Positions 42,192 to 42,322 of a DNA stretch of 64,000 bases are shown here, piece by piece (the stretch's first letter is position 1; every line of letters starts with the position of its first letter). A program made the translations under genes and the position numbers. Source of the stretch: a virus. The DNA is taken from UHGV virus genome UHGV-0373904, one strand, 5' to 3'. Under the pieces are notes generated by a model. That model had not been told where the DNA came from and did no database searches. It was given only the letters and a program-made list of their open reading frames with translations.

Positions 42192-42322
42192 CAGAAGACC
42201 GTTTACAGCAAAACTTAAACAATCTATTTCTCGGTAAAGAAAAGGCGAAGGTTCGATTCCTTCACTCGGCAGATGTCGAGTTGGTGTAATGGTAGCACTT
42301 AAGATGATAAACAACGGTCTGG
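42192..42322 (+). ncRNA. IR-bounded element E4 with internal T-arm-then-D-arm tRNA-like module
   Basis: 5' CAGAAGACCGTTTACAGCAA and 3' ACGGTCTGG; interior GAAGG-TTCGATT-CCTTC + ACTCGGC followed by GTCGAGT + GTGTAATGGTAGCAC. Confidence 0.4.

Follow-up and report, generated by a model that had tools for sequence, protein, structure and literature searches.

A tRNA-mimic module in a candidate Y-RNA-like RNA encoded downstream of a Ro60-like gene in Felix O1-type phages

INTRODUCTION

Bacterial YrlA RNAs carry variable (V), T, acceptor-like (AS), and D stem-loops in this order, closed by a helix that binds Ro60, and conserve the nucleotides involved in tRNA tertiary contacts (Chen et al. 2014, PMC4201824). 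The YrlA of M. smegmatis, whose AS has 7 bp, is a substrate of RNase P, and CCA is added to it (Chen et al. 2014, PMC4201824). Junctions between neighboring tRNAs are known false positives in YrlA-type searches (PMC4201824). The logic described for Ro60 and its Y RNAs involves docking on a bulged helix, gating of the cavity, and tethering to PNPase, and a phage example is the complex of the Thermus phage phiLo Ro60 with Yrl1/Yrl2 and PNPase (PMC12135203; PDB 9KOP, 9L5Y). Here, we analyzed a stretch of 64,000 nucleotides (the window) from the virus genome UHGV-0373904, a Felixounavirus, i.e., a Felix O1-like myovirus (hosts E. coli and Salmonella). In it, a tRNA-like module with the T-arm before the D-arm (42247-42298) is located within a 430-nt gap (42042-42471) that separates tRNA-Asp and tRNA-Lys. 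A first-pass annotation had offered two readings, a permuted or split tRNA or a tRNA mimic of the Y RNA kind. Our results indicate that the module is probably the tRNA-mimic insert of a Y-RNA-like noncoding RNA, here named Y4, and not a permuted decoding tRNA. We found no description of these phage RNAs in the literature searched.

RESULTS

A permuted cloverleaf within a larger RNA

The module reads exactly as first described, with T-arm, acceptor strands, and D-arm in that order:

42247-42263, + strand: T-arm mimic GAAGG-UUCGAUU-CCUUC, carrying G53-C61, U54 U55 C56, and A58; invariant in Ounavirinae
42264-42281, + strand: acceptor-like hairpin ACUCGGC-AGAU-GUCGAGU, 7 bp with one wobble (U2.G71) and C3-G70; closed loop without CCA
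42282-42298, + strand: U8-G9 linker and D-arm mimic GUGU-AAUGGUA-GCAC, with A14, G18 G19, and A21; the D-arm itself spans 42284-42298

The acceptor-like hairpin consists of a 3'-type strand (42264-42270), the loop AGAT (42271-42274), and a 5'-type strand, GTCGAGT (42275-42281), and the complementarity with one G-U noticed earlier corresponds to the 7 bp that include the U2.G71 wobble. The D-arm is also present, although its stem is better read as 4 bp (GUGU/GCAC, one U.G) with a 7-nt loop than as the 3 bp originally given. A descriptor composed of T-arm, closed hairpin, and D-arm had a single match in the 64-kb window, exactly at 42247-42298, and this arrangement is far beyond chance. No normal tRNA was placed at the module by ARAGORN, a check proposed with the first description (26 tRNAs elsewhere in the window), or by Rfam (24 tRNAs). 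The isolated 146 nt gave just a truncated 16.3-bit Rfam match to the 3' half of tRNA (RF00005), with no standard-order cloverleaf, and no Rfam family accounted for the element either at the gathering cut-off or at E ≤ 10.

Minimum free energy (MFE) folds of the gap and of 42190-42325 alone gave a circularly permuted cloverleaf, from which the following features were delimited:

42190-42324, + strand: Y4, Y-RNA-like RNA of ~135 nt, based on MFE folds, RNAalifold on a homology alignment, and covariance model R1 (see below)
42203-42211, + strand: single-stranded motif UUACAGCAA, directly 3' of the 5' strand of the closing helix; invariant in Ounavirinae
42227-42242, + strand: V hairpin UUUCU-CGGUAA-AGAAA, at the position of the tRNA variable arm; comparative support weak (3 pairs)

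From outside to inside, Y4 is formed by a lower stem (UAC/GUA), an internal loop (AGA/G), a helix (AGACCGU/ACGGUCU), and the single-stranded UUACAGCAA, followed by the variable-position hairpin, the T-arm, the closed acceptor-like hairpin, the D-arm, and an A-rich return strand. UGG comes directly after the 3' strand of the closing helix. The nucleotides of tRNA tertiary structure are present (U8, A14, G18G19, U54U55C56, A58, and G53-C61), and no CGAA was found in Y4 outside the T-loop, the 5' strand reading AGACCGU-UUACAGCAA.

Permuted tRNA genes of the Cyanidioschyzon type have all the parts of a tRNA, among them the anticodon stem and its loop of 7 nt. A circularly permuted or split gene such as those of Cyanidioschyzon merolae, yielding a decoding tRNA and perhaps the missing tRNA-Trp, would fit the location of the 3' half before the 5' half, the complementary acceptor strands, the lack of tRNA-Trp among the 26 tRNAs called by ARAGORN (all other amino acids are covered), and the N-CCA that follows the 3' acceptor strand in some relatives. 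However, as the first-pass annotation had stated, there is no anticodon arm, and in its place Y4 runs through the UUACAGCAA internal loop into the closing helix. In addition, the window copy has a closed 4-nt loop without CCA, relatives cap the hairpin with GNRA or UNCG tetraloops, and Trp is probably served by a tRNA-like gene that ARAGORN did not call (43335-43413, anticodon CCA) and that is kept in 199 genomes. This explanation is, in our view, very improbable, and the module as a permuted "missing tRNA-Trp" was rejected on its anatomy and on the tRNA-like gene at 43335-43413. The idea of a split tRNA fails for the window copy but may hold in a limited form for relatives, in which 5 of 10 eligible acceptor-like loops carry N-CCA.

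Conservation and covariation in Felix O1-type phages

The element is conserved, being present in ~250 phage genomes, with an identity of the 430-nt gap of 95 to 100% in ~210 Felixounavirus genomes and of 71 to 88% in Suspvirus and Mooglevirus. Synteny is kept as well (DUF2828 gene, tRNA array, tRNA-Asp, element, tRNA-Lys). Five phages of three genera were compared in an alignment derived from BLAST. The T- and D-arms were near-invariant in it, and the acceptor-like hairpin was swapped in a compensatory way, to ACACG(U)/(G)CGUGU (loop UACG) in SUSP2, Sf19, and ESh21 and to ACCCUUC/GAAGGGU (8-nt loop) in Michonne. RNAalifold on this alignment independently recovered the closing helix of Y4, the T-arm, the acceptor-like hairpin, and the D-arm, together with two neighboring elements described below (Y3 and domain 3), with a total of 14 compensated pairs over the 430-nt gap. 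The alignment has indels of 1, 2, 4, and 6 nt, which argue against the "hypothetical protein" open reading frames that some records place in the gap.

The record GU169904.1, named Staphylococcus phage SA1, contains the Felix O1-type element at 99.3%, and a Campylobacter-labeled record has it too; both are probably mislabeled or chimeric.

The Ro60-like gene upstream of the array

The tRNA array is directly preceded on the same strand by the gene in question:

39800-41215, + strand: gene of a Ro60-like protein of 471 amino acids, directly upstream of the array; DUF2828 and DUF7788 (Pfam)

Its product combines a ring of helical repeats with a vWA domain that has the DxSxS MIDAS motif, invariant in the protein family, and has the Ro60 fold by fold comparison, from which the link to Ro60 came; searches by sequence gave no match in the PDB and nothing in NCBIfam. 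We propose this protein as the candidate partner of Y4 and of three related RNAs (Y1 to Y3, below) and UUACAGCAA of Y4 as a candidate docking site for it, both by analogy with Ro60.

By position and fold, the product matches gp130 of Bas63, another Felixounavirus, in which gp130 is encoded directly upstream of a stretch of tRNAs and was reported to be Ro60-like (PhageMaP preprint, PMC11482910). Bas63 gp130 counters the ppl defense system, an ability that can be transferred to T7 (PMC11482910). The two proteins share the location upstream of tRNAs and the likeness to Ro60. However, the preprint deals with the protein and goes no further on RNAs than the guess that Y RNAs may be among the annotated tRNAs, whereas the RNAs described here lie in the gaps between tRNAs. 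DUF2828 is also mentioned in papers on plants and other eukaryotes.

Four candidate RNAs with a shared helix and motif

The signature formed by the closing helix and its adjacent motif appeared at four sites of the tRNA array, Y4 and three others:

41548-41624, + strand: Y1, between tRNA-Glu and tRNA-Met; GAC-AGA-AGACCAA-UUACAGCAA ... UUGGUCU-G-GUC, with no tRNA-like insert
41715-41777, + strand: Y2, between tRNA-Met and tRNA-Asn; UGC-AGA-AGACCGU-AUUCAGCAA ... ACGGUCU-G-GCA
42099-42181, + strand: Y3, with an AU-rich hairpin insert; (GG)AGC-AGA-AGACCAA-AUACAGCAA ... UUGGUCU-G-GCU(C)

All four follow the common form NNC-AGA-AGACCNN(N)-(A/U)U(A/U)CAGCAA ... NN(N)GGUCU-G-GNN, and their 3-bp lower stems covary among paralogs (GAC/GUC, UGC/GCA, AGC/GCU, and UAC/GUA). 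They occupy gaps between annotated tRNAs, not annotated tRNAs themselves, and only Y4 has the tRNA-like insert. Since Y1 to Y3 share the module without the tRNA-like part, the conserved unit is the helix and motif and not the tRNA shape.

The same modules beside Ro60-like genes of distant phages

We collected 80 IMG/VR loci around relatives of the Ro60-like protein, 75 of which have proteins only 39 to 47% identical to that of the window. A first descriptor, limited to T-arm, closed hairpin, and D-arm, had matches in several distant loci, all on the gene strand. Those without overlap with an ARAGORN tRNA all carried a flanking signature that had not been requested, namely, UU(U/A)CAGCA(A) after a closing helix of variable sequence, and (C)UG(A/U/G)UAA after the complementary 3' strand. 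A second descriptor consisted of this signature alone (G-initiated helix, U[UAG]C[AC]GCA, insert, helix ending in C, then NG) and gave, in the 75 distant loci, 146 modules on the gene strand versus 24 on the opposite strand and 13 to 20 in dinucleotide shuffles. Most of the gene-strand modules (108 of 146) were at ≤1 kb from the gene, and 52 of the 75 loci had at least one module within 1.5 kb of it, usually two. The pattern was replicated with unchanged descriptors in 32 loci from new contigs (a second scan for loci otherwise found the same contigs again), with 62 modules on the gene strand versus 6 on the opposite one and 2 to 6 in shuffles, and 26 of 32 loci positive. A search for related loci starting from the Yersinia phage protein P0026 gave nothing.

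In the distant phages, the consensus of the motif is U[UAG]C[AC]GCA(A). The inserts range from none (RNAs of ~50 to 60 nt) through permuted T-AS-D, normal-order tRNA-like, and T-arm-only forms to domains of 180 to 260 nt. Two inserts of normal order, with D-arm, anticodon-like arm, and T-arm (L049:5735-5834 and L063:5759-5854), have no acceptor stem, the closing helix being in its place, and the same two loci contain T-arm-only variants (L049:5850-5936 and L063:5868-5960). A recurrent pair of modules was found directly downstream of the Ro60-like genes in many loci (e.g., L017:7419-7720, L019:7410-7715, L088:2085-2381, and L093:4450-4743), formed by a module of ~57 nt (helix GGUUCC/GGAACC) and, a few nucleotides later, one of ~235 nt (helix GGAUCG/CGAUCC). 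On another distant phage contig, a group I intron (L023:11696-11922; Rfam 71.5 bits, above gathering) lies a few kilobases from the Ro60-like gene.

Pairing statistics and a covariance model

MAFFT placed the variable helices of full-length distant modules out of register; for this reason, pairs were counted on excised, spacer-joined segments, and a majority-mapped structure was used for the covariance model. The register of helix 1 was set by anchoring on the terminal G/C pair, the automatic choice being inconsistent. In the excised in-register segments, 96.9% of cells were paired, a value partly built in by descriptors that require pairing, versus 33 to 43% when partners were slid by 1 to 3 columns; what is informative in these statistics is the variety of pair types, together with the slid controls. 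Both sides changed in 17 of 22 pairs, all 7 acceptor-like pairs covaried, and the T stem covaried in the wider family. U8 and A14 were present in all 16 permuted modules parsed. The 15-48 (Levitt) pair was G-C in seven of these and A-U in four, and only the window lineage (A.C or A.A) and the locus L033 had a non-canonical combination at these positions.

The covariance model R1 was built from 15 distant modules with zero Ounavirinae sequences. Its best match in the window was 42194-42324, full length, with 57.0 bits (E = 6.3e-10), and the next best was a tRNA-tRNA junction with 31.6 bits and broken acceptor pairs. It also gave a match to Y2 of 22.4 bits (E = 0.017), with both model ends matched, and a partial match to Y1. 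Across 99 loci, all 36 matches at E ≤ 1e-3 were on the gene strand, several of them outside the training set.

We also considered a decayed remnant, i.e., the 3' end of a degenerate tRNA abutting the 5' end of another, without function. Such junctions are known false positives of YrlA searches, and one of them is precisely the second match of R1. However, the acceptor strands of the element co-vary across genera, its conservation is 95 to 100% in ~210 genomes and 71 to 88% in other genera, and the same arrangement with 3- to 4-nt loops recurs in unrelated phages. A remnant is even harder to accept than a permuted gene, and a decayed tRNA junction was ruled out by the compensatory changes.

In many modules, the acceptor-like hairpin is capped by GNRA, UNCG, or other tetraloops, and the window copy, with its 4-nt AGAU loop and no CCA, belongs to this closed class. 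Ten modules combined a stem of 7 bp with a loop of ≥6 nt, and 5 of these had N-CCA exactly at positions 73-76 (Michonne, L049, L063b, L081a, and L081c; P ~2e-7 at 1/64 per loop). By analogy with mycobacterial YrlA, this suggests that a subset may be opened and trimmed to a tRNA-like CCA end by an activity of the RNase P type.

The same data bear on another explanation, a tRNA-shaped element independent of the Ro60-like protein that would act as an RNase P/RNase Z processing signal or as a decoy for tRNA-targeting nucleases or tRNA-binding defense proteins. Consistent with it, Y4 shares the promoter of the tRNA array in which it lies, it has an acceptor-like stem of 7 bp stacked on a T-arm, the main RNase P determinant (PMC4201824, for M. 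smegmatis YrlA), the enrichment of N-CCA in the loops of relatives (5 of 10) implies tRNA-type end processing, and gp130 acts against ppl without phage RNAs. Nevertheless, the distant tRNA-like inserts recognized here sit in the helix and motif module, which accompanies the Ro60-like gene (same strand, mostly ≤1 kb away), Y1 to Y3 carry this module without the tRNA-like part, and the window loop has 4 nt and no CCA. We consider an independent element unlikely.

Comparison with YrlA and phiLo Yrl RNAs

Y4 and YrlA (RF02553) share the V-T-AS-D order with the anticodon side replaced by a terminal helix (protein-binding in YrlA), the tRNA tertiary nucleotides, and a covarying 15-48 pair (in the relatives of Y4, the window copy having A.C). 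Both are encoded beside a Ro60-fold gene and on its strand, that of Y4 being DUF2828/DUF7788 and not TROVE, and in both systems there are often several copies of which one alone is fully tRNA-like (YrlA/YrlB and Y4/Y1-Y3). The order of modules, the upstream Ro60-fold gene, and Rfam YrlA matches to distant relatives (E of 4e-5 to 5e-5) support the Y RNA-type alternative that the first-pass annotation had offered. Like Y4, the M. smegmatis YrlA has a 7-bp acceptor-like stem, and five relatives of Y4 encode N-CCA at the corresponding position of the loop; however, the mycobacterial RNA is cleaved and CCA-tailed, whereas the loop of Y4 is a 4-nt AGAU without CCA. In contrast to YrlA, Y4 is inside a phage tRNA array and not in an rsr-rtcBA operon. 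The phiLo Yrl RNAs were identified by their CGAA motif and no tRNA-like domain was reported for them, while Y4 has a tRNA-like domain and no CGAA motif; besides, the binding of Ro60 and Yrl in phiLo is experimental, and that of Y1 to Y4 is proposed.

Taken together, we find it likely that the phage Ro60-like ring has a set of Y-RNA-like partners (Y1 to Y4), of which Y4 is the one with the tRNA mimic. The structure with its covariation, the synteny, the protein fold, and the statistical association of modules and genes in distant phages are directly supported. Several points weigh against this proposal. The ribonucleoprotein of Y1 to Y4 with the Ro60-like protein is wholly inferred. The gene product belongs to Pfam DUF2828/DUF7788 instead of TROVE, and where YrlA has GNCGAAN0-1G, Y4 has UU(A/U)CAGCAA plus a 3' (C)UG. 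The Rfam YrlA model, an Infernal check already suggested for this element, had no match on the window copy even at E ≤ 10, although it did recognize three distant members (39.2, 38.9, and 28.7 bits; E of 4e-5, 5e-5, and 0.046), below the gathering score of 69. The Levitt 15-48 position of Y4 is a non-canonical A.C, the tRNA-like insert is present in just ~17% of the sampled loci, and the percentage of pairing was partly predetermined, as said above. Finally, gp130 alone, expressed from a plasmid or moved into T7, overcomes ppl (PMC11482910). Since it rescues T7 on ppl hosts by itself, the RNAs would be regulators or adaptors for another activity and not obligatory cofactors for the anti-ppl phenotype.

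Comparison with Dictyostelium Class I RNAs

Class I RNAs (RF01414) start with AAG and have a stem of 6 bp whose structure, but not its sequence, is conserved (Kjellin et al. 2021, PMC7919456). A 5' G, invariant in these RNAs, forms a pair with the C of CUGU on the 3' side, and the adjacent CCUUACAGCAA has invariant U3, C6, C9, A10, and A11 (PMC7919456). They share with the phage modules the stem, the terminal G-C pair, the 3' CUG, the (A)AG before the stem, the adjacent motif, and a variable insert. Y1 to Y4 and the distant modules fit the stem and motif features, including the invariant U, C, C, A, and A, and, by reading of the consensus, the Rfam Class I consensus satisfies the phage-module descriptor. 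This was the only Rfam model touching the helix and motif, with 13 to 22 bits on Y1, Y2, and Y4 (19.7 on Y1 and 22 on Y2; gathering 41.5), and it gave nothing at E ≤ 1 on five distant phage loci. On the other hand, Class I RNAs are eukaryotic, 42 to 65 nt long, have DUSE promoters, were reported as unique to dictyostelids, and have an RRM protein as direct binder. DDB_G0281243 is one of four pull-down partners of Class I RNA and has no known function; literature searches on it and on Dictyostelium with Ro60 gave nothing. We advance only tentatively, as something we would not ourselves expect, that a G-initiated helix plus UUACAGCAA ... helix-C plus UG defines cross-kingdom equivalents of Y RNAs for DUF2828-type Ro60 paralogs, with the abundant Class I RNAs as members. 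In that case, the Class I partner would be a DUF2828-like protein, possibly DDB_G0281243, and in phages the variable insert would program what the ring is tethered to.

Other elements of the tRNA array

ARAGORN placed 26 tRNA genes on the + strand between 41381 and 46684. The surroundings of Y4 contain these further features:

41234-41262 and 41325-41354, + strand: two sigma-70-like promoters, upstream of the array of tRNAs and Y RNAs
about 42047-42067 and 42070-42097, + strand: two conserved hairpins at the 5' end of the 430-nt gap, the second with one compensatory change from G-C to A-U
42325-42467, + strand: domain 3, a helix of ~24 bp around a multi-branch loop (three-way junction), immediately 3' of Y4, with its end at the tRNA-Lys leader

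No + strand terminator was found between the array promoters and the next promoter (42795); with promoters upstream and no intervening terminator, the sequence makes it plausible that Y1 to Y4 and the tRNAs from Pro to Ile form one precursor, released by tRNA processing. Domain 3 (z = -5.3), which may be part of the same precursor as Y4, is without the helix and motif signature and had no Rfam match. Its long helix has several compensatory pairs across genera, and its interior differs sharply between Felixounavirus and Suspvirus/Mooglevirus. The ends of three gaps between tRNAs (42455-42471, 43101-43114, and 43757-43772) have similar leaders, ...AAAGAU(A)AUUUAAU, right before the next tRNA, with a hairpin of the CUUUAAAG type ahead of each leader, and may represent shared processing or leader elements.

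In the uncalled tRNA-like gene at 43335-43413 (+ strand), U-G-CCA comes after an acceptor stem of 7 bp (UGGGACG/CGUCCCA), the anticodon loop contains CUCCAAA (with CCA, for Trp, as the anticodon), a T-arm is present, and the D region is oversized and aberrant. The gene is missed by ARAGORN, receives only a tRNA-Sec match of 23 bits from Rfam, and is conserved and unannotated in 199 phage records. Judging by its sequence, it is probably the "missing" tRNA-Trp.

The tag peptide of E. coli tmRNA is ANDENYALAA. In the gap 42780-43114, a tmRNA-like tag frame (42961-42993, + strand), GCA AAC GAC AAT GTT TTT CTG GCA GTA GCT TGA, encodes ANDNVFLAVA* and is preceded by an A-rich context, AAAAUAAAU; Mooglevirus Michonne has the same peptide, with synonymous changes in the frame (GAC to GAT and TGA to TAA). 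This unit, which has its own promoter (TTGACA-17-TATAGT, 42795-42823) and ends at tRNA-Arg, is separate from Y4. The gap gave Rfam matches to tmRNA (13.5 bits) and tmRNA_permuted (24.5 bits), no ARAGORN call, and no T-arm. Between the promoter and the tag-like frame, in the Ile-Arg gap, ~89 nt of the window (42826-42914) are absent from typing phage 1 and Michonne.

Least credible of all the explanations considered is that the module is the acceptor piece of a two-piece (permuted) tmRNA whose tag frame would be the one 660 nt downstream. The T-arm and 3' acceptor strand do precede the 5' strand, as in permuted ssrA genes, and the tag-like frame is conserved and accompanied by weak Rfam tmRNA matches. 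However, the 3:70 pair is C-G and not the G.U identity pair of alanine, AGAU instead of CCA follows the 3' strand, the hairpin of the acceptor strands is self-contained and has a tetraloop, the module and the tag frame are separated by three tRNAs and a distinct promoter, and ARAGORN, which is able to detect permuted tmRNAs, reports none. A tmRNA link of the module was rejected on this anatomy (C3-G70, self-contained hairpin, and no ARAGORN call).

DISCUSSION

A working model for Y4 as part of the Y-RNA-like set would start with transcription of the array from the promoters at 41234-41354 as one precursor, from which RNase P and the 3' processing of flanking tRNAs would free the RNAs located between tRNAs. 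The stem, internal loop, and second stem with UUACAGCAA would then dock on the Ro60-like ring in the way that the bulged helix of Y RNAs does on Ro60. The insert is predicted to fold into a tRNA-like L, with a 12-bp coaxial stack of acceptor and T stems capped by the tetraloop and an elbow of D- and T-loops held by U8-A14 and G18G19-U55C56. In the most speculative steps, the L domain would be a tRNA-shaped handle for host factors that recognize tRNA or for an exoribonuclease, and it would gate the ring or tether it, in the manner of YrlA and Yrl RNAs in the RYPER-type complexes of bacteria and phiLo. The resulting ribonucleoprotein would act in RNA or tRNA surveillance or in counter-defense during infection.

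The Y4 family is apparently undescribed, with no Rfam 15 family, an architecture like that of YrlA, but a different protein-binding motif and partner family. It adds an RNA family absent from Rfam 15 and explains "hypothetical protein" calls laid on structured RNA. If the match of the motif reflects a shared partner, the long-standing question of the function of Dictyostelium Class I RNAs becomes directly testable. Felix O1-type phages are widely used in typing, in therapy, and as models, and one of their proteins, Bas63 gp130, has a published counter-defense phenotype without an identified RNA partner, for which Y1 to Y4 provide four concrete candidates, a docking motif, and a tRNA-shaped domain. 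The pairing of the RNA module with a DUF2828 gene recurs across many unrelated large phages, and it would extend the Ro60/Y-RNA paradigm to a second protein family.

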